A DNA stretch of 63,829 nt from Fidelibacterota bacterium (GCA_013202385.1 JABMOT010000130.1:1-63829), one strand, 5' to 3'; shown: positions 28,563 to 48,397, counted from the stretch's first letter. Notes: generated by a model from the sequence alone, not told the origin. A program made the numbers and translations.

Positions 28563-29921
28563 TTACTGAGTCAGCCATTCATTGGCTTTATCTAATTGAC
28601 CTAATTTGGCATAGATTGATGCAATTTTTCGCTTCGCATTGGCATCGTCCGGTTTTAATTGGACCAATCTCAAATAAACTTGAAGTGAAGCGTCATATTC
28701 CCCCATCCGCAGCAAAATATTTGCAATTGCGTTGAGATAGGCTGGTAACTCACCCTCCAGTTGAATGAGCTTAGCCAAAACATCCAATGCTGTCGGCCAA
28801 TCTTCCAACCGCTCCAGAACTTTAAAATAATTTTTTAGAACGCTTGTGTTGTCTTTGACCACTTCCATGCATGCTTTATAGCTTTGAGCAGCTTCGGCCC
28901 ATTTCTCAGCCTGAGCATAGAGGTCTCCCAAGCTCTTGGAAATAGTTGGCTGATCAATTTCGATATCTGTGGAGATTTCAGTCCCCGAGGACTGAATCAG
29001 CCGATTCACTGATTCTACTTTTGCCAAAGCTTCGATGGCTTCATCAATTTTTTTGGAGGCCATGGCAAGTCGGTAACGCAAAAAATAAGCAGCATTTTGA
29101 CGCTTTTTTAATTTCAATGACTTATTTATGAGGGGATTAACCTCACCAAGTCTTCCAAGGTCAAATAATGTATCAGCATAGTTATTGAGCAAAGACGCTT
29201 CCATTGAAGGATCAAACTGTTTTAATTGCAGAGCAATTCTATAGTGTTTTTCAGCCTCTATCAGTTTGCCATCAACTTTATAATTGTGGGCAAGTGTGTA
29301 ATGACTATATGCACTATTTGGGTTCGCCAAGACTTCTGATTCCAGAATATTTCTGTTCCGGGCTTGCTTATCTGTTTTCGCCTGTCCCGTAAAGCTGTAG
29401 CCGAGATGATCAAGAATCACTGTACATGATCGCTCCAGGGCACAGAGTTTTTTGGCACTGGGTGAAATTTGCTCATGGATTTTTCCAGTAAAATTTATCC
29501 CGCGCTTATTCGTGAAAAGTCTGTGGGCATCTGACCAGGTATAGTTGAGACCGTCTTCCTTCAAATTTTTAATTCTTAATTTGTAGATCACCGGTTTTAA
29601 TTCTGGAGTCAGCAGCTTCTTGAAAGCCGGGACAGAAGCTTCAGAGAGGCGTTCATCAGCATCTATCCAGAGTATCCAATCCCCTGTCGCGTATTTTATG
29701 GATTCATTTCTGGCGGCGGCAAAATCATCGCACCATTTAAAGTGATATATTTCAGCGTTGAAGGATCTGGCAATTTCCAGCGTTTTATCGGTGGAACCAG
29801 TGTCAACCACAACCAACTGATCAGCCAGTTGTGAAACACTTTTCAAACAATTCTCAAGCAGGGCTTCCTCATTACGAACGATCAGGCAAACACTCAGCTT
29901 CATCTGTTGAGGAATATTCAT
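28563..29921 (-). CDS. Family 2 glycosyltransferase fused to TPR repeats
   Basis: GT2 core LSVCLIVRNEE...VVVDTGSTDKT...WILWIDADE, followed by ~250 aa of TPR-like helices. Confidence 0.85.
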   Translation of the reverse strand: MNIPQQMKLSVCLIVRNEEALLENCLKSVSQLADQLVVVDTGSTDKTLEIARSFNAEIYHFKWCDDFAAARNESIKYATGDWILWIDADERLSEASVPAFKKLLTPELKPVIYKLRIKNLKEDGLNYTWSDAHRLFTNKRGINFTGKIHEQISPSAKKLCALERSCTVILDHLGYSFTGQAKTDKQARNRNILESEVLANPNSAYSHYTLAHNYKVDGKLIEAEKHYRIALQLKQFDPSMEASLLNNYADTLFDLGRLGEVNPLINKSLKLKKRQNAAYFLRYRLAMASKKIDEAIEALAKVESVNRLIQSSGTEISTDIEIDQPTISKSLGDLYAQAEKWAEAAQSYKACMEVVKDNTSVLKNYFKVLERLEDWPTALDVLAKLIQLEGELPAYLNAIANILLRMGEYDASLQVYLRLVQLKPDDANAKRKIASIYAKLGQLDKANEWLTQ

Positions 29922-29977
29922 GCGCAGGCTGAATTACTGAATGACCAAAATTAACTCTGGGACAAGCTGCTCATTTG

Positions 29978-30958
29978 TCAAAGCTTAACATCCATGGCTT
30001 CAAATTCTTGGAGCGTTTCGTGCATGCCAACCAGGGTTTGAAGTTTCTCTTTATCCACAAGAAATGTTTTTACATCTTCGTTATCCAGTTTTGAAGAAAT
30101 AAGTCCTGCCTGACGATATTTTTTAAGCTCTGCTTTATAATCATCAAGGGGTTTATTGAATTGTTCCACAAACATCTCTTCGAACAGATGTTCCTCAATT
30201 TCCGGTTCCCAACGTTGCTCGCGCATCACCTTAAATAAAAACGAAATAAATTCGAGTTCATTCTCATTTGGCTTTTGAAAATGAATGGGTACTTCGTTCC
30301 CCTGTTTCTCAATAAACCTGGATTTACAATAATCAGCAAAGAATTTGAATTTTGAAAAATCTTTTACAATGAGCATGCGACCGTGTTCAGAGCTCATTTC
30401 ACTTTTCGCCATGGGTGTGAGGGTGATTTTGTTCATAACCCCGTCCACGTGAGCAGAGGGCAGATTTAGCAGTAAGGCGATATCCTGCACCAGGGGTTTC
30501 CAGGGAGTCGATATTTCATCCTGTAGATTTGGCTCCAGACCGGCCAATACATTGCTGACCATAAGCACGACCTGGCGGGAATGATCCTGGCTGGTCAGGG
30601 TTTCCGCATGCTTATTGGCATCTCTAAGACGCTCTGCCATAATCTGAAAAAACGAGCCCATCCACTTTGGCAAGCCTTCGAGATTTTTTTGAAATAACAT
30701 GCGGCTCATTTCAATACACTTGGTATTCCTTATGACCGTCACTGTTGCTGAACGAGGATATCCGTCGATCAAAGCCATTTCACCAAAGATGGCACCTTTG
30801 CTGAGATGGGCATAAACGACTTTTTGCTTATTCTTGATGGCAGAGACTTCAACCTCTCCAGATTGGATAATGAACATGGAAGCCCCGGGATCATTTTCCT
30901 TGAAAATGATATCCCCTTCGGCAAATTCTCTCAAACCCTTTTGTTCCATGAAATTCAT
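29978..30958 (-). CDS. Cyclic-nucleotide-binding (CAP-family effector) domain protein with an uncharacterised C-terminal extension
   Basis: cNMP-binding signature GDIIFKEND.G..MFIIQSGEV...FGEMALIDGYPRSATV. A possible degenerate HTH (LVQDIALLLNLPSAHVDGVMNKI) is followed by ~150 aa of unknown function. The GGAGGAG RBS lies inside the end of the upstream gene, with a 3-nt gap. Confidence 0.8.
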   Translation of the reverse strand: MNFMEQKGLREFAEGDIIFKENDPGASMFIIQSGEVEVSAIKNKQKVVYAHLSKGAIFGEMALIDGYPRSATVTVIRNTKCIEMSRMLFQKNLEGLPKWMGSFFQIMAERLRDANKHAETLTSQDHSRQVVLMVSNVLAGLEPNLQDEISTPWKPLVQDIALLLNLPSAHVDGVMNKITLTPMAKSEMSSEHGRMLIVKDFSKFKFFADYCKSRFIEKQGNEVPIHFQKPNENELEFISFLFKVMREQRWEPEIEEHLFEEMFVEQFNKPLDDYKAELKKYRQAGLISSKLDNEDVKTFLVDKEKLQTLVGMHETLQEFEAMDVKL

Positions 30959-30961
30959 GAT

Positions 30962-33900
30962 CTACTCCTCCCCACCCATTAATATACTTTTAGCCATAAT
31001 CTGCTCTGGATCTATAGAGAGGACTCTTTTTGCCAGCTCCCTCGCATCTTCAATTCGATCAGCCTCAAGGTTCAATTCAGCGAGGCGTAACAGGCTTGGG
31101 ATATCTTCTGGATGTGTAGATATGATATCCATAAGTACCTGAACACCTTCCTGGAAATGATCACTCATGAGCAGAATTTCCGCATAATTCCGATGTGCGT
31201 CAACAAATTCTGGATCATTTTCGAAGGCGAGCTTAAATAATTTAGTTGCACCATCAATATTGCCAGCTTCTGCAGATATCATTCCTGATAGATTAAATGC
31301 TGGCGCATTGTGTGGATCCAGATTGAGCACTCGGGTCACAGTTGCGATAGCCAGTTCAAGCTTGTTTGTGGTCTTGGCTGCCAGGGCGAGCCCCAGTAGA
31401 GCCTCGACATTCAATGGATCTTCTAAAACAAGAGTGTTCAACCGATCAAAGGCTGAATTATAATCCCCTAATTCAAGGTCATGCATTCCTGAAGCCATCT
31501 GTTTTGGATGGGTTTCCGCCAGGGGGTTTTTCAGCTCGATTAGTTCTTCGTAATCAACATCAGACCATTTCTGTTCGAACAGCTTACTCCTGGTTTTCAG
31601 AGATTCTGTATAATCAATCTTATTAGCCTTAAAGGTTTGACTCCCATAGTGGTGAATAAATACCCCTTCGTGAACCATTATGGCATATCCGGCTTGCCGG
31701 ACTTTGAGACAGAGGTCATCATCCTCAAAATTGCCGGAGCCAAAGCTTTCATCAAGACCGCCGACTTCGGAATAAAGTGCTTTTTCCATGAGGATTGCAA
31801 AACCTGCAATTCGTCTGCGGGCGCTTACCACCTTTTGATTCTGCTTAAGAACCTGCCCTGCAAACTCCTCAAATCCAGCAGTCTCCTTGTAAGGGACTTC
31901 TTTCAGCATTTGCCGGCCACTGATATGGTTGGTGATGGGACCGACCATGCCGATATGGGAATCCAGCTCAAGTGCTGAAACCATTGCAGAAAGCCAACCT
32001 CTGGCAACCAGGACATCGTTGTTAAGAAGTAGAATATATTTGCCTCTAGCGGCTTCCACACCTTGGTTATTCCCTGCAGAAAATCCCCTATTTTTTGGAT
32101 TCTGTATAAGTGTATAATTTGACTCGGATTGAACGAGTTCCTTGAGGTATGCCTGAGTTCCATCCTTGGAGGCATTATCTACAAAAATGATCTCATAAGA
32201 ATATTCGGTATTCTTTTTAATACTTTCCACGCATTCTCGTGTGTATTTGAGAGCATTCCAGGTGAGAATCACGATGGAGACCAGTGGTGAATTGAGCACA
32301 GGGGGTTCTTCCAGAACCTTTTTTAATATTTTTGCGGTTGCCAGGGGTGACCAATTGTCATTGACCAACTGACGACCATTGTCAGCCAATGTCTGCCATA
32401 GTGTTTCACTCTGATATGCTTTGACCACAGCATTGGTAAAGTCTGCTGGTTCATCGGCGATCAAACAATGTACACCATCTTTGAGATGCATGCCCTCTGC
32501 CCCAATGGTGGATGTCACGACAGGTAATCCCCAGGAAAGTGCTTCGCCTATTTTGCCCTTCATACCACCGCCATATCGAAGTGGATTGACAGAAATCCGT
32601 GCGTGGAACAGATAAGGAGAAATGTCTTCCACAAAGCCGGTTACAATGATATCCTCCCTTGCCAATTCGAAGACGTTTACAGGGGGATTATTCCCGACGA
32701 TGTAGAGCTTTAAATCAGGAATGCTTGTTTTTATTGCGGGGTAGATCTCCTGGCAAAAATACAGTATGGCATCACAATTGGGCGTATGATTGAAATTTCC
32801 TACAAAAAGTAAATCTTTAGTATCCACATAATGTTTCACAAATGGAACGTTTTTGTGGATATTCGGCAGAATATGAATGGGCTTTTTAATCCCAACCTTC
32901 TTTAGCTCCTGAAGGTCCTCCTCAGTCACAACCCATAAGCTGTCTGCAGCTTTGTAGGTTTTGATTTCCAGGGATTTTCTCATTCTCGATTCTTCCAGGG
33001 CTTTTGAATCACCCGTTAGTGCAGCCTCACGGAGCTCGCGGATAAAATGAACATCTACTGTGTCCACCACGATCTGTGTTTTGGGAGAGAGTCGACGGAT
33101 GATTGGCGTATAATAGGCAGCAATGTTCCAGAAGGATAGAATGGCAACCTGAAACTGCTTTTCGTTGAACAATAATTCATAATCTATGGGTTTCATTTTG
33201 TCGAGAGCTGGATCATCGCTGATATCTCGCAGCGCTCCCACATCCTGCGGATAAACCTCCACCCCCAACTCAATGAGACGTTTGATGTAGCGGACATCAC
33301 TGGCATTGCTGATACGGGCGATAAAGACAACGTGGTAATTTGCCGCTGCAAGAATTTCGATGGTCTGAAACAGGCGCAAGGACCCCGATGCACGATCCCA
33401 CATGGGCAGTAACGGATCTGCAATGAGAATGTTAGCTCTGTTGCCCCTTTCCGCTGCTTGAATGACATTTTCAGGTTTGTGATCACACTGGTTGGACAAT
33501 TCCCAGTTCCATTTTTCCATAAATTTTACGCGGTTAATTGCCTGGAAGCGTTTAAAGCCGGAATCAATGTCCGTCCCAGCTGTCTTGCCCTCATAATGGA
33601 TCACTTCGCTGAGTGGATGATAGAAAACTTTATATCCATGCTTACGAACTTCAAAACAAAGATCCGTATCCTCATAGTAGGCTGGAGCATAGCGTTGGTC
33701 AAATCCACCAATCTCATTCCATAGATGGGTCCTAATTGTCAGGGCTGCACCGGAACAGTAATCTACGTCTCTGACATAATTAAAGCGTGGATCACGAGGA
33801 TCCATGCCGCGACCCACATTCCAGCCATCACCATCTGAGAAAATGATCCCACCGGCTTCCTGGAGAACCCCATCAGCATAGATGAGCTTTGAGCCCACAG

Positions 33901-36900
33901 CACCGCAATCAGGGCGTTCCTTCATGAGGTCAACAACAGCCTTCATCCAGCTCGGCTTCACCTCCGTATCGTTGTTGAGAAAGAGAATAAATTCACCAGA
34001 AGCATGGGCAGCACCGGAGTTACAACCACCCACAAACCCAAGATTATCAGGATGAGAGATGAATTTAAAGTGCTCGTCTTGAATACTTTTAAGATAATCA
34101 GCAGTGCCATCTGTGGAGCCATTGTCTACAATGATAACTTCGTAATTGGGATGTCGTGTATTTTTAAGTATGGATTTGATACATTTATGCGTGTATTCAA
34201 GATTATTGAAAACGGGAATAACAACTGAAACCCTAGGGAAATTGCCTTCGAGCTCCATTTTTGCGCCAGCACCTGGATCAGAAAGATGTGGCAGAAAGGC
34301 TTGCACCTGATTGTAATATTCAGCCAGATTCAGTGTATGATGTCGGCTTGAGAGCGCTTCTTCAGGGGTTTGGAAGAGAAATCTTGGTTCTTTTACCGTA
34401 CCCTTCTTCTGGACCTTGATGAAGGCTTGAGTTGGAGAGAGTTTTTTCGCCTTCAGCAGTGAAATATCCAAAGCCAGAATATCAAGAATAAGTTTTCGAT
34501 CCTGAGCGTCATCTGCGTTAAAATTGGGGCCATAACCACGATCCACAAATCGATTGATAATGGTAGCAAATGGCATAAACATTTCAATATCAAAAATTTG
34601 GATCAGTTTTGGAAGGATATCCTGGGCCCGAATGCCTTCGAAGCCATCCAGACTACAATCTCTATTGAAAGGCTGTAGATCATATTTTTTACTATAGTTA
34701 TTCAGTCTGAAACGTTGATCCAGGCGTCGCCAGATTTCCTTGACTACCTGTTGGGCATTTGGCCACATAACATGGCCATTGCGACCAATCATATCATTGA
34801 TCAGAAAGATCATATCATCACTGGAACGCTCCGAAATCTGTTTAAATAGCCGTTCCAGTTCCACCAGATGATGCAGTGAATGATTCGCCAGGACAACATC
34901 AATCGGACCCTGTAGATCGGGATTGTTAAGGTCTTGAATTTCAAAGGAGACATTCTTTAGACCTTCGCTTTTGGCAGCGGCACGAGCCCTTTCAATCATG
35001 TTTGGATTTACATCCACACCGATAAATTGAACTTTTTCCGGCGCTGCAAGCCGTTTTAACAGTCCGATCTCAGTATCGCCATTTCCACAAGCCAATGAAA
35101 GAATGAAGATGGTTCGATCCGCTCGCACAACAAAATCATCTATTTCTTTAACCCACCAGGATAGGGAATCACCCCGACCGGTTAATTCTGTCAAATGGGG
35201 TACGAGGAAATCTCGTGCATAAACATTATGTATTTCAGGAAGGTTATGAACTTCAGTATTATGTTCATAGATAGCGATTTCCTGATTTAGCTTCGACTGA
35301 TAATTTGGCAAAGAAGCGACTTGTTGTGCCCTGTCACGGCGTGGGGGTGCATTATCACAAATCTCTGAATAGGGTAACAAGCCAACTTTTGCGTAATGGG
35401 CTTCCAGGTTGCAGATATATATTTCTCCACCTGTTTTACAAATATGGTTTTCGACCCAGGGGATACAATAATCCTGTTTATACCCTCCCACTTCTTCCAT
35501 GATATTACTGTGTTTTCCACTTTTCTTCATCAGGTCATAGGTCCAATCGTGGAGTGATGAATCCTGCTCATATTCATCCTGGAAAAAATATTCATTCGAA
35601 TTCATATCTGTTCCGACCAGTTTGATTCTATTCAGCGGTCGCAACGCATGGGCGAAATTCATTGCAGAAGTAAGGGTTCCTTTAAAATGGAATAAATTTT
35701 TGTCTATTGATTTGCTCCAACCAATTTTATCTAATTCTGGATTCCAGCCATCGCCGGTGAGTGGATGAAGTGATGATACGATGATGGGGTTTGGCAGATG
35801 TTGTGCTTTTGCATATTTCCCCAATTTCTCCCCAAAAACTAATATTACGCCGTGCAGTTTCTCGTCATTGATTATTTTGTCAAGTGTTCGCAGGAAAACT
35901 CTCTGACTGGGTTCATCATTCGCATCAAATTGAATGTGATATTTGGGGATGATACCCACTAAGTCATAAAAGAGCAGGTATTTATTAATGCTGATAGAAA
36001 CATCTGCCCGGTTTATATAGGCGACCTCTTTTTTATCCAGGGTTAGTAATGATTTACCGCTTCCAAGAATAAAACTTTCCTGAGAACTTCTTTTCTTCTT
36101 ATCGTCAGCGTCACCTGTTTCAGGAAGTGAGGCAAGGGCTGCTTTATCCACTATTGCCTGCTGCTCAATTTTTTTAGCCATGCTTTCAAATTCTCGGACA
36201 ATGACTTCATATTCATCGTCTTCCCAAACCCAGCGCTGAAATTGATTCAGCCAGGGTAATTGCGCGCCGACCTCCAAGCCAATCGATTTGAGATGTTGAA
36301 CCGATGTGGCAGCACAATTTTGGGTAATTATTTTAAACATGAGAAAACGAATTGATTCGCTGAATGCACCAAATATTCCTGGTCCATTGGCGACAAACAT
36401 GTTCAGATAAGCCCTTTCATACAGAGCAATTCTTATTTCCAGATTCCAGACCACATCAGGAAATAGATTTAAATTCTTCAACGGTTCAGGGATGGGTTGA
36501 AGAGCCGCTTCAGTATCCCTGATGATAACTGGATAATACGTTTCTGAATTAAGAGAAGTGGCGAATTTTGCCCATGCTTCAAGAGTGCTGTTGCGACCTA
36601 ACTCGTAAGAACATTCTCGAAGCGTAATCGTAACTATTTTCTTCTTCCCTACATGGGTATCAATCCATTGATCGATAAACGCTCCCGCCTGTTTCGATGA
36701 TTTTACAAAAGCCAGGCTACCTGCTCTGGTAAACTCTGGTATCAGATTTGATAGTAAATATTTGCCTCGAGGGCTGTCTAAATTGTAATCCAATGGAAAT
36801 ATGTCATGATTGGCATCGGTGACATGACTAACGACTTCGCTGCGAGAACCGCAAACAGTTACACCGCTGCAAGAAGGAAACGACCAGCAGCAGGGAACCA

Positions 36901-37168: not shown

Positions 37169-37182
37169 ATTAGCCCTCGATA

Positions 37183-39859: not shown

Positions 39860-39890
39860 TGTTCCTGCTAGTATCTATAATTTATTTTAG

Positions 39891-40769
39891 TTATGTATTA
39901 TTAATGAGCTGTGCAAATTCATGCTGCAAATTTTTGAATGTGTCCCATTCAACCATAAATTTTTGATTCCTGTTGGCAAATCCGAAACCTTTAGGATTCA
40001 CTAACTCCCGCTCCATCGCTTCCTGATGATGCCCGGGATGCTTCCATATTAAGTAGGGTTTGTCACTCAGAATGGCTCTATTGCAGGGGCCACTGGCCAT
40101 CCCCATAAATGCTGTTGACATATCCACCAGAGCCAGGTCCAATTCTAAATTCCCACCATGATTTTGCACAGAAATAACATTGTGCAATGAGCAAATCACA
40201 TCATCTACCTTGTCCAGGCCGATGATGACAAATTTCACATCAGGCGTTTCTTTTTCAGAATACAGAAAAAAGTCGAGCCAGGATTGTTGATTAGCATTAC
40301 TCTGCAGGTCCAGGGCATTATTTTTTAAATGAATGGTGATCATCTTCGCATCAGCAACATGTCTATCCATCCAGATCTGGGCTAGTTGTTTTACAGTCTC
40401 GGGAGTTTTCATCTGAACTATTTTGTGTGTTTTCTCCCAATATTTTTGAACGGTCTGGTAGCTTTCTGAATAACTGCAACTGGCGTAATCTGTATTTCCC
40501 GGCCACCTGTAGTCGGTAGCACTGACATTTACTTCTTCCTGCCTGTTAACGAAATTGAGATTCCCCAGATACGGGTTTAAGCGTGAGATAATGGTAATTA
40601 TTTCTCTTGAAGTACCTCCCCTGCTGTTGCAAACGTAGAGATCAACATTCTCAACATCTAACACTTCCCTAAGCTGGAGTAATTCTTGTTGAAATATCAG
40701 GAATTTGCCAACGCCATTCTGAATTGCGTTCAAATCCCAGACTCCGACAATATTTGTGTACTTAGTCAT
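39891..40769 (-). CDS. Hypothetical protein, paralogue of the N-terminal domain of the giant glycosyltransferase (GT-B/GT9-like fold suspected)
   Basis: Colinear similarity to residues ~1-340 of the 30962..37168 product, for example WMDRHVADAKMITIHLKNN vs WIDTHVGKKKIVTITLREC, and NLELDLALVDMSTAFMGMASGP vs NLEIRIALYERAYLNMFVANGP. Confidence 0.5.
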   Translation of the reverse strand: MTKYTNIVGVWDLNAIQNGVGKFLIFQQELLQLREVLDVENVDLYVCNSRGGTSREIITIISRLNPYLGNLNFVNRQEEVNVSATDYRWPGNTDYASCSYSESYQTVQKYWEKTHKIVQMKTPETVKQLAQIWMDRHVADAKMITIHLKNNALDLQSNANQQSWLDFFLYSEKETPDVKFVIIGLDKVDDVICSLHNVISVQNHGGNLELDLALVDMSTAFMGMASGPCNRAILSDKPYLIWKHPGHHQEAMERELVNPKGFGFANRNQKFMVEWDTFKNLQHEFAQLINNT

Positions 40770-40791
40770 TTATATTCATCATGTTCTTTAA

Positions 40792-41469
40792 CTATGGATT
40801 GATGAGTCCGACGCCAACGCCCATTAAATAATGCGACATTGGACCATACCCGGTGTGAATGACTTCATCGTTCATTGAAAACATAAATACATTCTTAAAG
40901 TACTTCGATAACAATTCCCGCATTCTACTGTGGGATAAGAGATTCACGTGCCCTTCTTTACTTCCGGCTGAGGCATATTGATTTGCCGTAATGTTTGGTG
41001 TACCCATGATAAATACACCATCCTCATGGAGACATTTGCAGATATTCTCAAAATACAAATGTTCTCTCTCAGTCGGTATATGTTCGATTACATCAAGGGA
41101 ATATGCGGCGGTAAAGACTGCATTCGGATGTTCTTTTGTGATATCCAGGCACTCCATTGAAAAGGCCAAATCGGCATAGCGCTCAAGATTATCCTCGATT
41201 AGGAGTGGCTCCCAATCCACGCCATGGATATGACCAACCGTCTGTGCAACGACGGGAACACCAAACCCATCGCCTACACCGATTTCAACAACGCTTTCAT
41301 GTCCTTCTAACATTTTAGCGACAAATTTGTATCTTGATAATAAGAAGCCTAAATGTCTAGGGTCATGATTCCATATATGCGTTGTATAGGGTCCCAACAC
41401 AGCCGGTTTTGATTTGTAATTATCAAACTGTACTTGATTTTGTTTTTCTTTTGCTTTGTTTTCGTTCAT
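40792..41469 (-). CDS. Class I SAM-dependent methyltransferase
   Basis: Motif I VVEIGVGDGFG, post-I and motif II (AYSLDVIEHI), and size are typical of the Methyltransf_11/23 type. Confidence 0.75.
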   Translation of the reverse strand: MNENKAKEKQNQVQFDNYKSKPAVLGPYTTHIWNHDPRHLGFLLSRYKFVAKMLEGHESVVEIGVGDGFGVPVVAQTVGHIHGVDWEPLLIEDNLERYADLAFSMECLDITKEHPNAVFTAAYSLDVIEHIPTEREHLYFENICKCLHEDGVFIMGTPNITANQYASAGSKEGHVNLLSHSRMRELLSKYFKNVFMFSMNDEVIHTGYGPMSHYLMGVGVGLINP

Positions 41470-41482
41470 GATACTTATCTTC

Positions 41483-42397
41483 TCATTTTTCTAATAATAT
41501 TTTAATTTTACGTTTTATGTTGGGTGAAGTAAAACCATAATATTCACACTGATCTTTATAATTTCCATAGTTGTGTGAGAATTCATTGGGAATATTAATG
41601 GCATCTGAATGGATATTATCCAATGCTTTGACTGCACGGATTACATCATCTCCGATACCGCCATATTCAGAGTGTTCTTCAATGACAATATAGTTTTTTG
41701 TTTTTGAAACACTTTCCACCAGGGTAGCGCTATCAAATGGTTTGATTGTGGGGTAATACAAAACTTCAGCGCTGATTTGATTTTGTTTTAATTCTTGAAT
41801 GCTTTCCATCACTGTACCAAGTTGGGGTCCAATGACGACAATGGTGATATCTGTCCCCTCTTGAACCACCACGGCCTCACCAAATTTGATTTTATGGTTT
41901 GGAATCTCATAGTTGTGCTTATGATCCGGCAATCTGAAATAGGTCAGGTAGTCATTCTTATAGGTCTGCTCAAATAAGATTTTGAATTCATTTGGCATGG
42001 CTGGATATACTATCTGGGTGCGAGGTAATGCTTTGATCAAAGCGATATCATCGTGACAATAATGACTGACACCCAAACCTGAATAGTCAAAAGCACTTCC
42101 AACACTAATAAGGTTGCCCCCTCTTTCCTGATAACAAAAGTCCAATTTTATTTGTTCAAAACTGCGTTCGATGAGAAAGGGTGCAATAGTGTGAGCAACC
42201 GGATGAAAACCTACATGGGACAATCCAGCAGACATACTGACAATGGTTGGCTCGCAAATTCCTACGTTGTAAAATCTTCCAGGACACGCCTGTGCAAAGG
42301 GTTGTAATGCAAAATGACTGATATCCCCTACCAGCACCACGAGCTTTGGATCGATCAAGCCAACTTCCAACATGGTTTCAGCGAACGTATTCCTCAT
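41483..42397 (-). CDS. Transketolase, C-terminal (pyrimidine-binding) subunit
   Basis: Split-transketolase B-subunit pattern (VGDISHF...GICEPTIVSMSAGLS..., C-terminal domain). ATGA overlap with the N-terminal subunit gene. Confidence 0.85.
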   Translation of the reverse strand: MRNTFAETMLEVGLIDPKLVVLVGDISHFALQPFAQACPGRFYNVGICEPTIVSMSAGLSHVGFHPVAHTIAPFLIERSFEQIKLDFCYQERGGNLISVGSAFDYSGLGVSHYCHDDIALIKALPRTQIVYPAMPNEFKILFEQTYKNDYLTYFRLPDHKHNYEIPNHKIKFGEAVVVQEGTDITIVVIGPQLGTVMESIQELKQNQISAEVLYYPTIKPFDSATLVESVSKTKNYIVIEEHSEYGGIGDDVIRAVKALDNIHSDAINIPNEFSHNYGNYKDQCEYYGFTSPNIKRKIKILLEK

Positions 42398-43170
42398 GAT
42401 GATAATTCTTCCATAATTTCAGCGTACTCCAGGGGATTAGGAATTTTATGATGCCACGGACCGTGGGTTTCCATAAAACGTACACCTTTGCCTTTAATCG
42501 TTCTGGCGATAATGACAGTTGGTTTTCCATTCGAAGTTCTGCTGAATTTATTAAAAGCAATATCCAACTCAGCTTCATTATGACCGTCACATTCCAGTAC
42601 ATTCCAACCAAACGATTCCCATTGTTTTATGATGTTGGGATGTGGCATGATTTGGGCTGCAGACCCGTTATAATCCACGATGAGGCAGAGGTTTTCCAGG
42701 TTCAAATTTTGCGCGACAAGGGCTGATTCCCAGACCGTCCCTTCATGGGACTCCCCATCACCTACGAGGACAAATACTTTGTTTTCTTTTTTATTGATTT
42801 TATGGCCCAGGGCAATCCCGACTGAATATGGAAAACCATGTCCCAATGATCCAGTCGATGCCTCCACTCCAGGAATTTTTACCCGATCAGGATGACCACC
42901 CAGCATTGCGTTGAATTTGCCATAATTATCCAGATCAGCTTGCGTGATGAAGCCATATTTTTCAAGCACAACATAAAGTGCGACTCCGGCATGACCTTTA
43001 CTTAAAATAAAATAATCCCGATCCGTCCATTCTGGATTGGCACTGTCGTATTTCAGATGATTAGCATACAGCGTGTCAATAATATCGATAACCGAAAAGC
43101 TACTGGGTATATGACCTTCTCCTCCATTGGTGATCGTATTTACAATTGTTTTACGCAGTTCAGTATTCAT
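42394..43170 (-). CDS. Transketolase, N-terminal (ThDP-binding) subunit
   Basis: GHIPSSFS, SKGHAGVALY, GSLGHGFPYSVG and VLVGDGESHEG ThDP-binding motifs. Confidence 0.85.
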   Translation of the reverse strand: MNTELRKTIVNTITNGGEGHIPSSFSVIDIIDTLYANHLKYDSANPEWTDRDYFILSKGHAGVALYVVLEKYGFITQADLDNYGKFNAMLGGHPDRVKIPGVEASTGSLGHGFPYSVGIALGHKINKKENKVFVLVGDGESHEGTVWESALVAQNLNLENLCLIVDYNGSAAQIMPHPNIIKQWESFGWNVLECDGHNEAELDIAFNKFSRTSNGKPTVIIARTIKGKGVRFMETHGPWHHKIPNPLEYAEIMEELSS

Positions 43171-43195
43171 GTTAATTAAACCTCATATCTTAAGC

Positions 43196-44680
43196 TTAGT
43201 GATGGATGCCGAGCTTAGTCCGGGTTTGTTTCCGATGATCATTCAATTGCTCCACACTCATAAACATCATTCGAGCAATTTTTTCTATATTTTCAGGTGT
43301 TTTAAAATTTATCCTATCCCATTCATAGGCTCTTAATACTTTCAGTTCCAATGGGGTAAATTCATCTGTAGTAATAAATCCTTCACTGGTACCAAAATAT
43401 TTTGGATTCCGAAAATCGAAATTTTCGGGTAATAAGTTTTGTTCTTTGGCAATTTTATACAAATCTGTTTTGGGATACGGAGTGGCTATATGGAATGAAA
43501 CCAAATCAAAGTTCATTGCTTCGGCAAACCGGAACGTTTCTCTGATCTCATCCCAGGTTTCTCCAGGCATACCAATCACAAAATTAGCCGCAATCTCGAT
43601 GCCTAACTCATTGCACTTTCTCACTATATTTGGGAATATGCCAAGTTTAACTGGTTTTCGAATAATTTTATGCAGCACCCTGTCATTACCAGATTCTACG
43701 GAAACTGTGATCATCTTGCATCCAGAGTCTTTCATTAATTCCAATAATTCATCATCAAGATGCCAGGCAGAAACATTGGGCATTTTCCAGGTAATATTAT
43801 ATTTACGGTCAATGAATGCTTGCATAATGGTCATGGCATGCTCTCTATCATCTAAAAAACATTCATCGAGAAAACTCAGATGACGCACACCATGATTTTG
43901 AATTAAACTATCAATCTCTTCCAGCACATCCTCAGTAGAACGATAATTTATTCCTCTACCTCTGATCGTCCGTGCTGCACAAAAAGAGCAATTGTATCTG
44001 CAGCCATACGAAGTCAGTAAGATTGCGGTTGGTCCCTGAAAGCTGTAGTTGTATTCTTTGGCAGACTGCGTTAAATAAAACTCAACATCAATCTTTGAAT
44101 AGTCCGGCTTAATGTTGGGATCAATATTAATCTCAGTACTTTTCGGTCGACGAATAATGTTCTCGCCATTAGCATCGCAATAACCGATACCTGAAATTTT
44201 TCTGGCTTCCTCAAATTGCCCTTCAAGAAGATGGTGAATGAATTCCAAAATGCCACCCTCTGCCGGACCAATGAAGATATAGTCGATATTTTTATCCTGA
44301 AGGGCTTCCTCACTCATGAGGCTCGGATAAATTCCACCAAATACCGTGATGCAATCCGGAGTTGCCTGCTTCACTATTTCAAATGCCTTGTGATATTGCT
44401 GGAAATATTCTACTGAAATGCCGGAGACCAGAAATATCCTGGGTGAGATGGTCTTGATCTGCTGTAAACATTCTGCTTCACTTAAATCCAACGCATTTGC
44501 ATCCAGAAGGAAGAAATCGTGATTTTCCTTCAAAATGGCTGTAAGAATTAAGGCTGAATGCGGTACCACCATCCAGGGGCGCTTGTTAAACCAACGCGTA
44601 TTCGGAATAAACAAGAGTACATCATTGGGTGTTGAGCTTTTCACCCTTGTGGGGCTATCAGATTTGTTGATGTGGTTCAT
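43196..44680 (-). CDS. B12-binding-domain radical SAM enzyme (class B)
   Basis: N-terminal cobalamin-binding-like Rossmann region, then the CRYNCSFC (CxxxCxxC) cluster and the radical SAM core. GGAGAG RBS. Confidence 0.85.
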   Translation of the reverse strand: MNHINKSDSPTRVKSSTPNDVLLFIPNTRWFNKRPWMVVPHSALILTAILKENHDFFLLDANALDLSEAECLQQIKTISPRIFLVSGISVEYFQQYHKAFEIVKQATPDCITVFGGIYPSLMSEEALQDKNIDYIFIGPAEGGILEFIHHLLEGQFEEARKISGIGYCDANGENIIRRPKSTEINIDPNIKPDYSKIDVEFYLTQSAKEYNYSFQGPTAILLTSYGCRYNCSFCAARTIRGRGINYRSTEDVLEEIDSLIQNHGVRHLSFLDECFLDDREHAMTIMQAFIDRKYNITWKMPNVSAWHLDDELLELMKDSGCKMITVSVESGNDRVLHKIIRKPVKLGIFPNIVRKCNELGIEIAANFVIGMPGETWDEIRETFRFAEAMNFDLVSFHIATPYPKTDLYKIAKEQNLLPENFDFRNPKYFGTSEGFITTDEFTPLELKVLRAYEWDRINFKTPENIEKIARMMFMSVEQLNDHRKQTRTKLGIHH

Positions 44681-44710
44681 TATATCTCTCCATTTCTCAG
44701 CATCATCAGA

Positions 44711-45472
44711 CTAGAAGAAACATCTTCCCTGTCCACCATCTACAGTAATAGCAGACCCGACGATAAAGGATGCATGTTGGGAGCATAAAAAAGTCACAAT
44801 GTTACCTATCTCCTCAGGTGACCCAAACCGTTGGATGGCCATCCTTTCAGACAGATATTTCTCTACGTGTTCAGGTCGCTCTTTTGAAGTCATATCCCAA
44901 TAGCCTCCCTCGGTGAAAACGGCTCCGGGTAATACGGCAGATATATTTATGCCGTCAGGAGATACATAGCGGCCTAAACTACGGGTATAGGCATTCAGCG
45001 CTGCTTTTATGGAACAATAAGGTGCGGTGCCTTGATTTTCCAGGGAGGCTATTGAAGAAATATGAACAATGCGTCCCCACTTGTTTAATCTCATCTGCGG
45101 AATCAGCATTTGATTCAGCTCAACCGCTATCTCAAGATTAAAACGATAAACCTGACGCCACTCTTCTATACCACACAGTGGATCTGTGAAACCTAAATTT
45201 CCACCAACATTATGTACAACAATATCGGGATGTCCGAATTTGTCAATCATTTCGGCAACCATTTTTTGGGGATTCCCCTCTGGAACCAGATCATAGGCAA
45301 GCCCAATATGATTTCCAGGATGGGTGTCCAAAAATGAGTTGATATCCCCTTGATTTCGGGCAACGATGGCGACCTGGACACCTTCTTTTGCCAGGCTGTC
45401 TGCGATAGCTCTTCCAAGACCACGACTTGCTCCCGTGACCAATGCTTTTTTATTTTTAATTCCTAAGTCCAT
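44711..45472 (-). CDS. Short-chain dehydrogenase/reductase (SDR)
   Basis: TGASRGLG and YCSIKAA (YxxxK). Confidence 0.85.
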   Translation of the reverse strand: MDLGIKNKKALVTGASRGLGRAIADSLAKEGVQVAIVARNQGDINSFLDTHPGNHIGLAYDLVPEGNPQKMVAEMIDKFGHPDIVVHNVGGNLGFTDPLCGIEEWRQVYRFNLEIAVELNQMLIPQMRLNKWGRIVHISSIASLENQGTAPYCSIKAALNAYTRSLGRYVSPDGINISAVLPGAVFTEGGYWDMTSKERPEHVEKYLSERMAIQRFGSPEEIGNIVTFLCSQHASFIVGSAITVDGGQGRCFF

Positions 45473-45479
45473 GTGCTTC

Positions 45480-46673
45480 CTAAATGATCATTAAAGGATT
45501 AAGAATCCTTTTGGGGTGGTGTTTATTTAATTTGTTTAGGATCGGTAATCTATTGTCCAAAGCAGTCAGTAAAATATTTGCAGCCGAGAAATCAAGAGTA
45601 CCGGGTTGTTGAATTTTTACCGGTAAATTGATATAACCAAGTCCTGCTTTTTGAGGATCGTTGTCCAGGATATTTTTAAAATTTGAGAAGTCGGTACCAA
45701 GATGATATCCCAGGATGGGTAGCATTAATGCGGCCCCATAACCGTACCATACTTCATTTTCTAAATTATTTAGTATTTCAGCAGTGATGGCCATTTGATT
45801 TTTAAACGACTGATATTTATCCTGAATAGCTGCCATGGACTTTTCTGGATTAAATACAATGGGATTATTCGCTGAAGTACTCTTAGCGCGTTTTTTAAAG
45901 GCAATAATCAACGCGCCCCAATAATTATAATTAATGGTATAATCGATGAGGACAGCATCCAGCAGACCAAGCATGTGCAGAAAGGATTGTACACTAAAAT
46001 ACTGGAGGTGCTGATGGAATACTTGATCAAAACGTAAATTCTCCAGTAGGGGGTCAAAACAGGGAAACTCAAATACAAATATTGTTTCATCACCTGTTTT
46101 CAGAAAAAGGGATTCTAGCAGCGCTTTTGGATCTTCAATATGTTCCAATGTGTGTTGTGATACCACCAATTCAGGATAATCATCAAGGAAATCACTAAAA
46201 TCTATGCTCTCTATTTTATCTCCAGAGAAATTGATTTCACCGTCCTTATATACTTGTGGATTGTCCTTCCAAATCAAATCAACCCCAAGGTACTGCTTTG
46301 ATTTATTTTCCTGCTTGAATAGTTTTAACAGATAACCATCATTGCACCCCAAATCGACAATACTTTTAAATACTCTACCCGGAAACAGAGTATCGATATA
46401 GCGCGAAAAATATTGCGAACCTCCACTAGCCGTTTCGCTGGCTGATGTTCGAAATCCGTATGTGTCCCCGTACATAAAATTGACATCGATGATATTTTTT
46501 ATCTGGGCATGACCACACGCCGTACAAAGCAGGAGTTCTTGATCATAATTCCTAAATTTACTGTCCTGCCCAGATTTACTATAAATGCCAGTTAAAGGAA
46601 ATTCAGGAAGCTTGATGACACTCTCCAAAGGACTACCACAAACAGAACATTTTGGATTCATATTCTTTTGCAT
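45480..46673 (-). CDS. Zinc-ribbon C-methyltransferase of the NDP-hexose C-methyltransferase (TylCIII-like) type
   Basis: N-terminal CSVCGS...CTACGH zinc ribbon, a class I SAM motif IVDLGCNDGYLL and a C-terminal extension. The family assignment is from memory of the Methyltransf_13/14 architecture. Confidence 0.7.
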   Translation of the reverse strand: MQKNMNPKCSVCGSPLESVIKLPEFPLTGIYSKSGQDSKFRNYDQELLLCTACGHAQIKNIIDVNFMYGDTYGFRTSASETASGGSQYFSRYIDTLFPGRVFKSIVDLGCNDGYLLKLFKQENKSKQYLGVDLIWKDNPQVYKDGEINFSGDKIESIDFSDFLDDYPELVVSQHTLEHIEDPKALLESLFLKTGDETIFVFEFPCFDPLLENLRFDQVFHQHLQYFSVQSFLHMLGLLDAVLIDYTINYNYWGALIIAFKKRAKSTSANNPIVFNPEKSMAAIQDKYQSFKNQMAITAEILNNLENEVWYGYGAALMLPILGYHLGTDFSNFKNILDNDPQKAGLGYINLPVKIQQPGTLDFSAANILLTALDNRLPILNKLNKHHPKRILNPLMII

Positions 46674-47729
46674 TTAAAATGGACCTTTAAACCAGTCCCC
46701 TGGCACATCATGGGGTGTATCACCGCGTTCAACCAATTCAGATCCAACAATGTTTTTATTAAACATCTCTGCAATAGTGTCAATAATATCCTCTGACCTC
46801 TTATAAAATCCGCGAGTTAAGCCCCTGCTGGTAGGCGTTGGGAAATCTGGAAGTGCAAGTCGTTTGGGAGCTTGCTTAAGCGCATTAAAACAATCCATGC
46901 TTACTCTGGCGACAATTTCACCGGCAACAGAATTCGTCGCCACGCCAGTGTCAATAGCAAGCAGTCGGCCTGTTTTCTTCACGGAAGCATAGATAAGGTC
47001 ATAATCCAGAGGCTTAATGCTAAGTAGGTCAATTAATTCGCAGGAGATTCCCTCTCTTTTTAAAATCTCCACAGCATGCAAGGCTTCAACAGACATGTAT
47101 GAGAATGAAACGACTGTAATATCATCACCTTGCGTCAAACAGGCTGCCTTCCCGATTGGAACCCGGTAGTCACCATCGGGAACTTCACCGTTTAAATTAT
47201 GCAACCAGCGGTGTTCGATAAATATGACGGGATTGTCATCAAAAATACTCTCAAGCAGCAAGCCCTTCGCATCAGCGGCCGTGGTTGGCATGACCACTTT
47301 TAGCCCGGGGATATGGGCGAATAGTGCCTGTAAGTTTTGTGAATGTGTTGGTCCTTGCCCCCATCCACGACCAACGATAAGTCTGATGGTAATGGGAACA
47401 GAGCTATTGCCGCCGAACATATAATGCCACTTTGCCGCACTATTTACCAGCTGGTCCATGGCCAACAGAAAGAAATCCAGCCTTTGATGGGTCATGATGG
47501 GACGAACGCCATTCAATGCTGCGCCAACTGCGATTCCAGTCATTGCATTTTCAGATGTGGGCATATCAAAAACCCGCGAACTGCCAAATTTTTCCTGCAA
47601 ACCACTTGAAGTACCGAAAACCCCTTTAGGATCCGGTATTCCCAACCCGTAACAGATTACTGACTGATCCATTTCCATTGACGTTGCAATGGCATCATTG
47701 ATGGCTTGTGAGTAAGTGATAATACTCAT
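46674..47729 (-). CDS. ThDP-dependent 2-oxoacid dehydrogenase E1 beta-subunit homologue
   Basis: Transketolase pyrimidine-binding plus C-terminal domains typical of PDH/AcoB E1 beta (FDMPTSENAMTGIAVGAA, HSQN...). The start overlaps the E1-alpha stop (ATGA). Confidence 0.85.
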   Translation of the reverse strand: MSIITYSQAINDAIATSMEMDQSVICYGLGIPDPKGVFGTSSGLQEKFGSSRVFDMPTSENAMTGIAVGAALNGVRPIMTHQRLDFFLLAMDQLVNSAAKWHYMFGGNSSVPITIRLIVGRGWGQGPTHSQNLQALFAHIPGLKVVMPTTAADAKGLLLESIFDDNPVIFIEHRWLHNLNGEVPDGDYRVPIGKAACLTQGDDITVVSFSYMSVEALHAVEILKREGISCELIDLLSIKPLDYDLIYASVKKTGRLLAIDTGVATNSVAGEIVARVSMDCFNALKQAPKRLALPDFPTPTSRGLTRGFYKRSEDIIDTIAEMFNKNIVGSELVERGDTPHDVPGDWFKGPF

Positions 47730-48397
47730 AGTGTATTTTTTTCTGCATATAAGCTGGTAAAGGCCATTCCCGGATCCGGAAAAGGTGAAGCTATGGCAAA
47801 TTCAAAGGCTTGATCCACTTCATGCTGAACATCCTTATGGTATTTTTCGACGTTACTCGCTGATAAGCTTAGTAGTTTTTCCTCGCAATGCTTGAGGGGA
47901 TCTTTTGATTGCCAGGAAAGGAATTCCTGTTCGCTTCGATACCCGATAGTATTGTCATAATTTGGACCGCAATGCTCCAGCCATCGGTAAGTTGAAAATT
48001 CAATAAATTGAGGACCTTGACCGAGTTTAATTTTCTCCACAGCGCTATTCGTTTTTTCGTAAACTTCGGCCAGATCGTTGCCATTTCCCGTTGTTGTTTG
48101 AATGCCCATAGCGCGAACCATCTCATGAATTTTTCTATTTTTGGGTTGCCGTACACTCAAGGGTGAATACACAGAATACAGATTGTTTTCACAGATAAAT
48201 AACACGGGCAAGTTCCTGACCACAGCGAAGTTGACGGACTCATAAAAGACACCCTCTTCGATAGCGCCATCACCAAAAAATACGCAGCTAACATTGTTGG
48301 TTTTCTGTAATTGAATTGAAAGGCCCAGTCCAACGGCAATGGGTATGGTATTACCCACAATTGCAGTACTGCCCATAAATCCAACAGATTTATCACT
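47726..48397 (-). pseudogene. 5'-truncated E1 alpha-subunit homologue (keeps the GDG...NN ThDP motif but lacks roughly the N-terminal third)
   Basis: Homology begins at about ..VGFMGSTAIVGNTIPIAVGLG and includes FFGDGAIEEG...ICENN. The GGSMH-type region expected just upstream is absent. The in-frame sequence upstream of ~48397 is only an out-of-frame reading of cheW. The first plausible in-homology ATG is at 48376. The ORF track extends to 48478. Confidence 0.55.

Follow-up and report, generated by a model that had tools for sequence, protein, structure and literature searches.

A probable flagellar glycosylation island, cut at its 5′ end by a rearrangement, in a Fidelibacterota bacterium

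Fifteen consecutive, tightly packed minus-strand genes at positions 28563-48376 of a 63.8-kb stretch of DNA from a Fidelibacterota bacterium (GCA_013202385.1, JABMOT010000130.1; the whole stretch is called the window below) probably make up the distal two-thirds of an island for O-glycosylation of the flagellum (flagellin), of a type common to Marinimicrobia, Calditrichota and Ignavibacteria. Homology of the product of the 3′-most gene to the enzyme GmaR, together with synteny across three phyla, supports flagellin as the most likely target of a cytoplasmic protein glycosylation. This agrees with an initial annotation of the same DNA, since GmaR is the best PDB match and flagellar genes stand beside the homologues in five loci. 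That annotation also took this kind of system to be undescribed; flagellar glycosylation islands, however, are already known, and a self-contained 15-gene operon with a novel activation-free logic is not supported.

The three genes at the 3′ end of the block form a transfer module:

28563..29921, minus strand: GmaR-like protein glycosyltransferase with GT2 and tetratricopeptide repeat (TPR) domains, 452 aa, called GT2-TPR here (Pfam Glycos_transf_2 and TPR)
29978..30958, minus strand: cyclic nucleotide monophosphate (cNMP)-binding protein, 326 aa (Pfam cNMP_binding, E 2e-21; cyclic-nucleotide-binding (CNB) domain at residues 10-91)
30962..37186, minus strand: giant multidomain transferase, 2074 aa (Pfam and NCBIfam domain matches)

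The catalytic domain of GT2-TPR finds GmaR (22ao) as its top PDB match in phmmer (E 2e-31; residues 4-200, ~197 aligned), and the motifs DTGSTD, DF..ARN and DADE are kept between the two proteins, DADE aligning with DADE. The next PDB match is a SunS-type peptide glycosyltransferase (E 2e-19). Pfam places TPR_2/12/16/19 repeats at residues ~200-452, C-terminal to the catalytic domain, and relatives carry orthologues of 58-73% identity at the same position. GmaR of Listeria monocytogenes is a flagellin O-GlcNAc transferase of GT2 and TPR modules that also has a MogR anti-repressor role, and the window protein shares with it the N-terminal GT2 domain and the TPR repeats that follow. Short length (~270-290 aa) and a central loop rich in Ser/Thr are common to the Listeria flagellin and that of the window. 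Despite these similarities, GT2-TPR is ~185 residues shorter than GmaR (452 aa against 637 aa; the solved chain has 204 residues), so that the anti-repressor region is probably absent, and no MogR-type partner is evident here. Moreover, the window enzyme sits in a 20-30 kb island with a giant multi-domain glycosyltransferase and a dedicated sugar cassette, which leads us to expect a complex glycan and not a single GlcNAc.

The giant transferase opens with a GT9-like GT-B domain (aa 16-342), continues through a region of no family (aa ~343-617) and a class I methyltransferase (aa ~689-800), and ends in GT2 (aa ~984-1214), GT4 (aa ~1451-1614), a second GT2 (aa ~1632-1852) and TPR repeats (aa ~1896-2065). 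Its first 342 residues are a second copy of the GT-B family of a 292-aa protein encoded in the same block (hhalign 97%, E 8.6e-11). Residues 618-2069 are conserved at 56-69% in the relatives' loci L013, L014 and L015; the N-terminal ~617 residues are exchanged in these loci (for example for a Capsule_synth domain in L012/L015), and the whole N-terminus is common to the window and the nearest relative, L022 (70% identity). In L012/L015 the KpsC/KpsS-type Capsule_synth N-terminus matches the 3-deoxy-D-manno-octulosonic acid (Kdo) cassette upstream, and in the window and L022 the GT9-like N-terminus matches a heptose-type module. These sequence comparisons argue that the N-terminal domains travel with the sugar cassette and that the part from residue ~618 onward is conserved. 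For aa 343-700, considered as a CstII- or Maf-like domain, neither Pfam nor the PDB gave a sequence match, and no MAF_flag10 or MptE-like domain was detected in aa 1-700 (Pfam, E<0.1). A stretch ‘ILGSGKSL’ looks Maf-like; a single-sequence AlphaFold2 (AF2) model was unusable (predicted local distance difference test, pLDDT, 34.8). Kinship of aa 1-700 with the ~700-aa TPR and Glyco_trans_1_2 proteins that stand beside the cassette elsewhere was considered and rejected, there being no similarity.

The cNMP-binding protein also lies between the giant transferase and GT2-TPR in L011, L013, L014, L015 and L103 (65-73% identity), that is, in all six Marinimicrobia copies where the position is visible, the window included. 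Its C-terminal ~235 aa have no Pfam match (E<0.1), and a second CNB domain there was rejected, with no internal similarity and no Pfam match. Elsewhere in the window, a gene for a FIST-domain sensor (10248-11399, minus strand) overlaps one for a class III adenylate/guanylate cyclase (9250-10251, minus strand) by 4 nt. Given a cyclase gene in the same window, a cNMP signal might gate the glycosylation.

We scanned GTDB species genomes with the conserved methyltransferase-GT2 part of the giant transferase and obtained nine loci. In five of the six loci with enough flank, the giant-transferase or GT2-TPR homologues have flagellar filament or hook-junction genes no farther than 10 kb away, so that the synteny search proposed by the initial annotation finds the module beside flgK-flgL-fliW or flagellin-fliS. 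The five are:

L015, Neomarinimicrobiota BH26: flgN-flgK-flgL-fliW-csrA; Kdo cassette
L021, Calditrichota: flgI...flgK-flgL; cassette of DegT, WbqC, methyltransferase and sulfotransferase
L016, Ignavibacteriales: flagellin-fliS downstream; cassette not annotated
L019, Ignavibacteriaceae: flagellin-fliS directly after the GT2 gene; cytidylyltransferase-containing cassette
L022/L103: flgN-flgK-flgL-fliW-csrA; heptose-type cassette

Flagellin-fliS is no more than ~1.5 kb away from a GT2(-TPR) homologue in L019 and L016, and in L015, L021 and L022/L103 the island abuts flgK-flgL. The module of giant transferase, cNMP-binding protein and GT2-TPR is found repeatedly in Marinimicrobia, with related versions in Calditrichota and Ignavibacteria; the flagellar-contiguous loci (n=5) carry five different cassettes upstream of it. 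The order of an intact island is thus late flagellar genes (flgN-flgK-flgL-fliW-csrA or flagellin-fliS), then a variable sugar cassette, then the conserved transfer module. No exporter, flippase, polymerase or priming transferase was found in five close relatives, which also answers a test set by the initial annotation, whether Wzx/Wzy or priming genes are attached there; a distant copy of the cassette, L007, does adjoin Wzm/Wzt. In L013 (Neomarinimicrobiota GMC6, 426-8683) there is no flagellar gene, with 8.7 kb of sugar genes running to the end of the stretch examined; its cassette holds two ATP-grasp ligases, a GT2, an acetolactate-synthase-like thiamine diphosphate (ThDP) enzyme of YerE-like architecture, a short-chain dehydrogenase/reductase (SDR) and a GH57-family protein.

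The nearest intact relative shows what a complete island looks like. L022 and L103 are two readings of one 70.7-kb Logan contig, which we infer to come from a Marinimicrobia relative because of its 58-84% protein identity to the window (E1 beta 84%, Zn-dependent alcohol dehydrogenase 76%, giant transferase 70% from residue 1, GT2-TPR 58%) and a shared 3′ flank. At its 5′ end stand flgN-flgK-flgL-fliW-csrA, followed by a ParA-like gene, a 107-aa open reading frame (ORF), an HldE-like kinase/nucleotidyltransferase, a GmhA-like isomerase and an RmlB-like SDR of the 4,6-dehydratase family. Then come a second epimerase-family SDR, a methyltransferase, a full-length E1 alpha (325 aa), E1 beta, a 60-aa ORF, a methyltransferase, DegT and a sulfotransferase, and finally the Zn-dependent alcohol dehydrogenase, the giant transferase (2057 aa), the cNMP-binding protein (326 aa) and GT2-TPR (448 aa). 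Beyond GT2-TPR, and convergent to it, are a response regulator, a PAS histidine kinase and an amino-acid permease. The same flank in the same order is found in the window (28140-28559, 25747-28119 and 24120-25598), L011 and L103, which indicates that the window island lies at the homologous chromosomal site and that only its 5′ side was replaced.

The features at that 5′ side are:

48395..48397, no strand: recombination breakpoint cheW′/′E1 alpha, where homology ends from both sides (48396±1)
47726..48376, minus strand: 5′-truncated E1 alpha, 216 aa (Pfam E1_dh profile positions 89-299 of 300 only)
48393..48806, minus strand: 3′-truncated cheW, 137 aa (Pfam CheW positions 1-103 of 138)
48885..50492, minus strand: methyl-accepting chemotaxis protein (MCP; Pfam MCPsignal, HAMP and 4HB_MCP_1)

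E1 alpha lacks ~109 N-terminal residues, including a GKGGSMH stretch present in L022. The missing part precedes the GDG ThDP motif, and the protein is very probably inactive. A length of 321-331 aa is typical of the 120 nearest homologue clusters (60-75% identity), against 216 aa here, so the window copy falls short of a full-length heterotetrameric-type E1 alpha (~320-330 aa). On the other side, the alignment of the cheW product to CheW of the PDB ends at residue 119 of 165, ~45 residues before the end of the structure. The protein lacks ~40 C-terminal residues: the 77%-identical orthologue in L023 runs 40 residues past ‘...IDRK’ (YIEGVATVEDRLLIILNSDLIFATEELGDLQAVKEAHASD). At the nucleotide level, homology of the E1 alpha side to L022 begins at 48395, which is nucleotide 309 of the L022 gene; homology of the cheW side to L023 and L024 (76-77% protein identity) ends at 48397, and the cheW frame meets a TGA on entering the sequence derived from E1 alpha. 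Neither the missing N-terminus of E1 alpha nor the missing C-terminus of cheW occurs anywhere else in the window, and a metagenome scan with CheW gave only unrearranged relatives. An assembly chimera was rejected, as the same junction is present in two other assemblies, L001 (JGI) and L002 (Logan), at 99.97-100% identity.

With both cheW and E1 alpha truncated, the 5′ boundary of the block is a breakpoint and not a natural operon start. The comparison with L022 also explains why some gene classes are missing: the rearrangement at 48396±1 removed the genes upstream of E1 alpha, so that the island's 5′ starter genes were very probably cut off and are not absent by design. The initial annotation had read the lack of a nucleotidyltransferase, a dehydratase and an aminotransferase as a new biosynthetic logic; this reading falls, since L022 has these genes 5′ of the breakpoint or in its variable centre. 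All other ORFs of the block are intact, so the event was recent or the remaining ORFs are still under selection. A spacer of 78 nt separates the mcp gene from cheW′, there is no terminator from mcp to the block, and mcp probably supplies the block's present upstream transcription. Homology of this MCP to that of L023-L026 begins only at residue 201 (nt 49785), which suggests that the sensor domain was exchanged. A second MCP of the window (16532-18145, minus strand) has ~70% nucleotide identity to the signalling domain of the relatives' MCP.

Apart from this boundary, the layout is largely as first described. An ORF scan gives 15 successive minus-strand ORFs from 28563 to 48478, the first of which, as called, overlaps cheW; homology supports the ATG at 48376 as the start of E1 alpha. 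The inter-gene gaps (-4, -4, -4, -4, 0, 3, 7, 13, 14, 22, 25, 30, 31 and 56 nt) include four 4-nt overlaps and one direct abutment, which bears out the 15 genes and the range of -4 to 56 nt given in the initial annotation. It had also seen no internal terminator, and this is a reasonable conclusion: terminator-like matches number 16 against 16.5±3.4 expected in shuffled sequence, and those on the minus strand within the block are weak, with stems of 5-7 bp. The 14 ORFs downstream of E1 alpha, one of them 6.2 kb long, are free of frameshifts and stops. Pfam reproduces the gene list and order proposed earlier; from the 5′ end these are truncated E1_dh, E1 beta, Methyltransf_13 Zn-ribbon with Methyltransf_23, SDR, B12-binding with Radical_SAM, Transketolase_N, Transket_pyr with Transketolase_C, class I methyltransferase, a protein of no family, SDR, SDR, Zn-dependent alcohol dehydrogenase, the 2074-aa protein (methyltransferase, GT2, GT4, GT2, TPR), the cNMP_binding protein and GT2 with TPR.

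The absences noted earlier extend from the block to the whole 63.8-kb window: by Pfam it holds no Wzx/Wzy, ABC or Wza exporter and no priming transferase, nucleotidyltransferase, 4,6-dehydratase or aminotransferase, and by tblastn and Pfam no isomerase, kinase/nucleotidyltransferase or phosphatase of the GmhA/HldE/GmhB type. Calling the enzymes undescribed was fair, for in the profile check none of the 15 products passes the trusted cut-off of an NCBIfam equivalog, and a known, named sugar pathway was rejected on the same count (0 of 15). The genes between E1 alpha and the giant transferase are:

46674..47729, minus strand: ThDP-dependent E1 beta, 351 aa (Pfam Transket_pyr and Transketolase_C)
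38272..46655, minus strand: central swappable cassette of nine genes, from the C-methyltransferase to the third SDR (unaligned between L022 and the window)
45480..46673, minus strand: Zn-ribbon C-methyltransferase-like protein, 397 aa (Pfam Methyltransf_13 and Methyltransf_23; orthologues in L007, L008 and L009)
44711..45472, minus strand: SDR, 253 aa (Pfam adh_short; orthologues of 49-67% identity in L006-L010)
43196..44680, minus strand: B12-binding radical SAM enzyme (B12-rSAM), 494 aa, presumed C-methyltransferase (Pfam B12-binding and Radical_SAM)
42394..43170, minus strand: N-terminal (ThDP-binding) half of a split transketolase (Pfam Transketolase_N, E 1.4e-39)
41483..42397, minus strand: C-terminal (pyrimidine-binding) half of the split transketolase (Pfam Transket_pyr and Transketolase_C)
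40792..41469, minus strand: class I S-adenosylmethionine-dependent methyltransferase, 225 aa (Pfam Methyltransf_11/25/23; orthologues of 42-61% identity in L004, L006 and L007)
39891..40769, minus strand: GT-B fold protein, 292 aa, GT9-like (AF2 and Foldseek)
39059..39859, minus strand: FabG-like SDR, 266 aa (Pfam adh_short_C2; orthologues of 42-48% identity in L007, L008 and L009)
38259..39062, minus strand: FabG-like SDR, 267 aa (Pfam adh_short; orthologues of 45-46% identity in L008 and L009)
37183..38244, minus strand: Zn-dependent alcohol dehydrogenase, 353 aa (Pfam ADH_N and ADH_zinc_N)

A blastn comparison of the window with L022 aligns only 48395-46656 (E1 alpha′ and E1 beta) and 38271-32681 (the alcohol dehydrogenase and the giant transferase). 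The 8.4 kb in between hold the C-methyltransferase, an SDR, B12-rSAM, the two transketolase halves, a methyltransferase, the GT-B protein and two SDRs, and L022 has at the same position a methyltransferase, a DegT aminotransferase and a sulfotransferase instead. The alcohol dehydrogenase is 76% identical to its L022 orthologue, which there too lies directly upstream of the giant transferase; E1 beta is 84% identical to that of L022 and scores 302 bits against a cut-off of 321 for the NCBIfam pyruvate dehydrogenase E1 beta. The window-type cassette recurs in the unrelated loci L007, L008 and L009/L010, usually accompanied by the alcohol dehydrogenase and, in loci that show that part, by E1 beta. 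Loci of Nitrospinota, Bacillota and Geobacter carry a reduced form of the cassette. Its transketolase halves are kept adjacent in L003-L010, the N-terminal half reaching 246 bits against 488 for NCBIfam transketolase. B12-rSAM, whose best NCBIfam match is HpnJ (162 bits against a cut-off of 578), has orthologues in at least 120 clusters of 50-68% identity from many phyla, and Pfam detects no C-terminal Methyltransf_14 domain in the C-methyltransferase.

The 292-aa protein has no Pfam (Glyco_transf_9 included) or NCBIfam match and 574 representative homologues (the representative library starts the protein at its residue 13). AF2, given an alignment of 60 sequences, produced a confident model (pLDDT 95.6; predicted TM-score, pTM, 0.93), and the top Foldseek matches are the GT9 heptosyltransferases 3tov, WaaC, WaaF and TibC (TM 0.54-0.62, ~11% identity). 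From this model we confidently predict a GT-B fold of an undescribed family, and an unknown non-enzyme was rejected on the same fold. A related 290-aa protein in L019 does match Glyco_transf_9.

Judged by its enzyme classes and neighbour genes, the cassette probably modifies a heptose-type nucleotide sugar. HldE-like, GmhA-like and GmhB-like genes accompany it across L004/L005, L006 and L009, and L022 has HldE-like and GmhA-like genes. The two copies of a GT9-like GT-B in the block point the same way. Metaproteomics has described heptose-containing protein glycans of ~1.3 kDa with heptose oxonium ions in Ignavibacteria (bioRxiv 10.64898/2026.04.15.718822; 10.1101/2020.12.03.409086), which is circumstantial support for a heptose. 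In the literature searched on flagellin glycosylation in Marinimicrobia and Ignavibacteria this system is not described, these heptose-type glycans of Ignavibacteria being the only related report, and there is no description of a ThDP E1 pair, B12-rSAM and split transketolase for flagellin glycans. L006 (Bacillota metagenome-assembled genome GCA_049323755.1, 1-21452) carries B12-rSAM, split transketolase, methyltransferase and SDR with HldE-like, GmhA-like and GmhB-like genes, followed by a complete nonulosonic-acid set (NeuB, DegT, 2-epimerase, acetyltransferase and CBS-NTP transferase) directly upstream of fliD. By its gene order, L006 appears to be an independent flagellar context for the cassette. 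Proteins of ~670-710 aa with faint TPR and Glyco_trans_1_2 matches recur beside the cassette in L006, L008, L009 and L010. The closest non-Marinimicrobia copy, L007 (Logan SRR32194794, 12458-14567), has a 65%-identical B12-rSAM, and after the cassette come two further B12-rSAM genes and an ABC exporter of the Wzm/Wzt type that includes a Wzt_C domain. In that locus, the cassette's sugar may cap an O-antigen-type polymer too.

The presumed acceptor lies on the far side of the mcp gene:

52278..53138, minus strand: short flagellin, presumed acceptor (Pfam Flagellin_N and Flagellin_C; probable start Met18 at 53087, ~269 aa)
51970..51993, minus strand: strong intrinsic terminator ending the flagellin unit (10-bp stem with 8 GC pairs, then T8)

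It is a D0/D1-only flagellin with a Ser/Thr-rich central loop (8-9 Ser/Thr per 30 residues at 171-220 against 2-7 in most windows of that size) and holds the peptide stretch LGNGDSSALGLSGINLSTANGASAAITTSGAAID. The gene is 3.9 kb from the island edge and 22 kb from the GT2-TPR gene. Thus the flagellin and Ser/Thr-rich segment named by the initial annotation stand, while their adjacency to the island is not ancestral; the ancestral flagellar neighbours, to judge from the relatives, were flgK, flgL, fliW and csrA. A 64-aa HTH_17 (excisionase/MerR-like) ORF at 52020-52214 (minus strand), also called in the JGI and Logan assemblies, lies between the flagellin stop and the terminator.

Taken together, these results suggest the following mechanism. 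In the cytoplasm, the GmaR-like enzyme would start the glycan by attaching a sugar to Ser/Thr in flagellin's exposed central loop; the giant TPR-bearing enzyme would extend and methylate the glycan, its exchangeable N-terminal domains adding the cassette-specific sugar. Neither a lipid carrier nor an exporter should be required, because flagellin leaves through the flagellar type III apparatus. We infer that the variable cassette makes an unusual activated sugar, most likely a derivative of a heptose-type nucleotide sugar that is C-methylated, branched or chain-extended, and reduced. In this scheme the split transketolase would supply the precursor sedoheptulose-7-phosphate, C-methylation would fall to the Zn-ribbon methyltransferase and B12-rSAM, a two-carbon branch would be added by the E1 pair in the manner of AviB1/AviB2-type enzymes, keto groups would be reduced by the SDRs and the alcohol dehydrogenase, and the cassette methyltransferase at 40792..41469 would act as an O-methyltransferase. 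The rearrangement has put the 5′ part of cheW in place of everything that preceded about codon 104 of E1 alpha. What stood there before, on the model of L022, comprised the flgN-csrA genes, the HldE-like activator, the GmhA-like isomerase, the RmlB-like dehydratase, the second epimerase-family SDR and a methyltransferase. The block would now be fed at best by read-through from mcp-cheW′ or by an internal promoter, and either genes at another site of the genome would have to activate the sugar, or production of the special sugar would have ceased.

Several of these properties are familiar from other systems. As in the islands of Pseudomonas aeruginosa, Campylobacter, Clostridium and Aeromonas, flagellin or hook-associated genes adjoin hypervariable mosaics of sugar and transferase genes, strains swap cassettes, and there is no lipid carrier or exporter; in contrast to those islands, there is no detectable Maf (MAF_flag10) and there are no nonulosonic-acid genes here, and the transfer functions are fused in a ~2000-aa TPR protein with a conserved cNMP-binding neighbour. 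Caulobacter FlmG, compared by architecture only, likewise fuses TPR repeats (presumed flagellin-binding) to glycosyltransferase domains, a likeness that extends to the ~700-aa TPR and Glyco_trans_1_2 proteins beside the cassette in L006, L008 and L009/L010; however, the window TPR is C-terminal, after five or six catalytic domains, and the donor would not be pseudaminic acid. With the ADP-/GDP-heptose pathway (GmhA, HldE or HddA/HddC, GmhB) the relatives share HldE-, GmhA- and GmhB-like genes, but these genes are not in the window and the divergent versions in L022, L006 and L004 score below NCBIfam cut-offs, with the HldE-like domain order reversed in L022. Similarly, two GT-B domains of the window are predicted to be structurally closest to the GT9 enzymes WaaC, WaaF and TibC, although their family has no Pfam GT9 match. 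AviB1/AviB2-type E1 pairs, TylC3-type C-methyltransferases and GenK-type B12-rSAM methylases are enzyme classes of antibiotic sugars. By enzyme class only, E1 alpha/beta without E2/E3, a Zn-ribbon C-methyltransferase and B12-rSAM together resemble the routes to branched or C-methylated deoxysugars; the window C-methyltransferase differs in having no detectable Methyltransf_14, the context is protein glycosylation and not a polyketide, and E1 alpha is truncated. Finally, surface polysaccharide loci (Wzx/Wzy, ABC or synthase) differ in having the priming transferase, flippase/polymerase or ABC exporter that the window and close relatives lack.

Some observations weigh against flagellar glycosylation as the function of the block. 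The strong terminator after flagellin and the HTH_17 ORF makes flagellin a separate transcription unit, and because L023-L026 have intact mcp-cheW and no island downstream, the proximity of flagellin and island in the window is a product of the rearrangement and not an ancestral arrangement. The copies beside Wzm/Wzt (L007) and beside a GT9 gene in Geobacter (L003) suggest that the cassette can serve other glycoconjugates and is not exclusive to flagellin. The heptose assignment is weak, a lead and not a finding, because the HldE-like (175 against 521 bits) and GmhA-like (77 against 209 bits) proteins of L022 score far below their NCBIfam equivalog cut-offs; the two domains of the former also stand in reversed order. 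As E1 alpha is broken and activation genes are lacking nearby, the branch that makes the special sugar may no longer work here. In addition, we know of no flagellin of the Fibrobacterota-Chlorobiota-Bacteroidota (FCB) group that has been experimentally shown to be glycosylated, and the metaproteomic glycans of Ignavibacteria were assigned to several proteins and not to flagellin specifically.

It is possible, though in our view doubtful, that the block is a decaying remnant: an island that has lost its activation genes and a functional E1 alpha and no longer makes its special sugar, the intact ORFs reflecting only how recent the loss is. The ~109 residues missing from E1 alpha and ~40 from cheW fit this, as does the lack of any HldE-like, GmhA-like or dehydratase homologue across the window, and the three junction-bearing assemblies, 99.97-100% identical across their overlaps, point to a single young population. 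However, 14 downstream ORFs, the 6.2-kb one among them, have neither frameshift nor stop, GT2-TPR and the giant transferase could still act with common nucleotide sugars, and the lost genes may persist at a reciprocal breakpoint elsewhere in the genome. A cell-surface polysaccharide or a glycan of lipopolysaccharide or capsule type, with the giant enzyme as a multi-domain polymerising transferase and export genes elsewhere, is unlikely. It would account for the Wzt_C-bearing Wzm/Wzt of L007 and the Glyco_transf_9 of L003, for the giant transferase of L012/L015 with its KpsC/KpsS-type Capsule_synth domain and Kdo cassette, and for the sub-threshold matches of the glycosyltransferase domains to exopolysaccharide (EPS) and O-antigen transferases. 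Yet exporter, flippase, polymerase and priming transferase are absent from the window and five close relatives, flagellar synteny is conserved over three phyla, the terminal enzyme resembles GmaR and SunS, which are protein- or peptide-directed GT2 enzymes, and both large transferases carry protein-binding TPR repeats. Very unlikely, in turn, is cytoplasmic glycosylation of some other protein or peptide, be it the 325-aa protein encoded at 50567-51544, chemoreceptors, cargo of the type IX secretion system (T9SS) or a SunS-type glycopeptide. SunS-family peptide S-glycosyltransferases are the second-best homologues, the Ignavibacteria glycans were assigned to several proteins and the window is rich in secreted T9SS proteins, but the vicinity has no genes for precursor peptides or bacteriocins. 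What relatives keep next to the island are flagellin, fliS, flgK, flgL and fliW and not the 325-aa protein or T9SS cargo, and neither that protein nor mcp or cheW neighbours the island there.

The rest of the window carries housekeeping genes besides its two MCPs, and no tRNA genes or Rfam RNAs were found in it. The 325-aa protein (minus strand) has no family, with a sub-threshold SlpA beta-barrel match; its gene lies between the flagellin unit and mcp-cheW′ and is absent from that position in L023-L026. Four large secreted proteins with a T9SS Por_Secre_tail are encoded on the plus strand at 4099-7503, 12453-15167, 15391-16410 and 18525-23165, one of them a 1546-aa protein with CotH kinase and lamin-tail domains and a beta-helix. 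At 58179-62387 (minus strand), an aldehyde dehydrogenase, a saccharopine dehydrogenase and an AlaDh/PNT-type dehydrogenase stand in a row, which looks like a lysine/saccharopine catabolic cluster.

If the flagellar reading is correct, flagellin glycosylation would extend to three uncultured or poorly studied phyla, and the combination of giant TPR multi-domain transferase, cNMP-binding protein and GmaR-like GT2-TPR would serve as a signature for such islands in metagenomes. That the giant transferase's N-terminus is swapped together with the upstream cassette resembles a natural experiment on how transferase specificity is fitted to the donor sugar. The cassette of B12-rSAM, split transketolase, C-methyltransferase and GT9-like protein, spread through many phyla (at least 120 clusters with 50% identity or higher), offers a concrete way into new sugar chemistry; its enzymes are uncharacterised, and a new sugar is a possible product. 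The pinned breakpoint also has a cautionary value for annotation, as the ‘missing’ pathway genes here reflect a rearrangement and not novel biology. More tentatively, and as one joint proposal that we consider speculative, the FCB superphylum might share an undescribed flagellin machinery: a cNMP-gated, ~2000-aa assembly-line protein with cassette-coupled N-termini, whose five or six transferase domains, methyltransferase and TPR would build an oligosaccharide directly on flagellin, using a new heptose that is C-methylated and two-carbon-branched or chain-extended by way of a ThDP E1 pair, a split transketolase and B12-rSAM. To our knowledge, no part of such chemistry or regulation has been described for any protein glycan.

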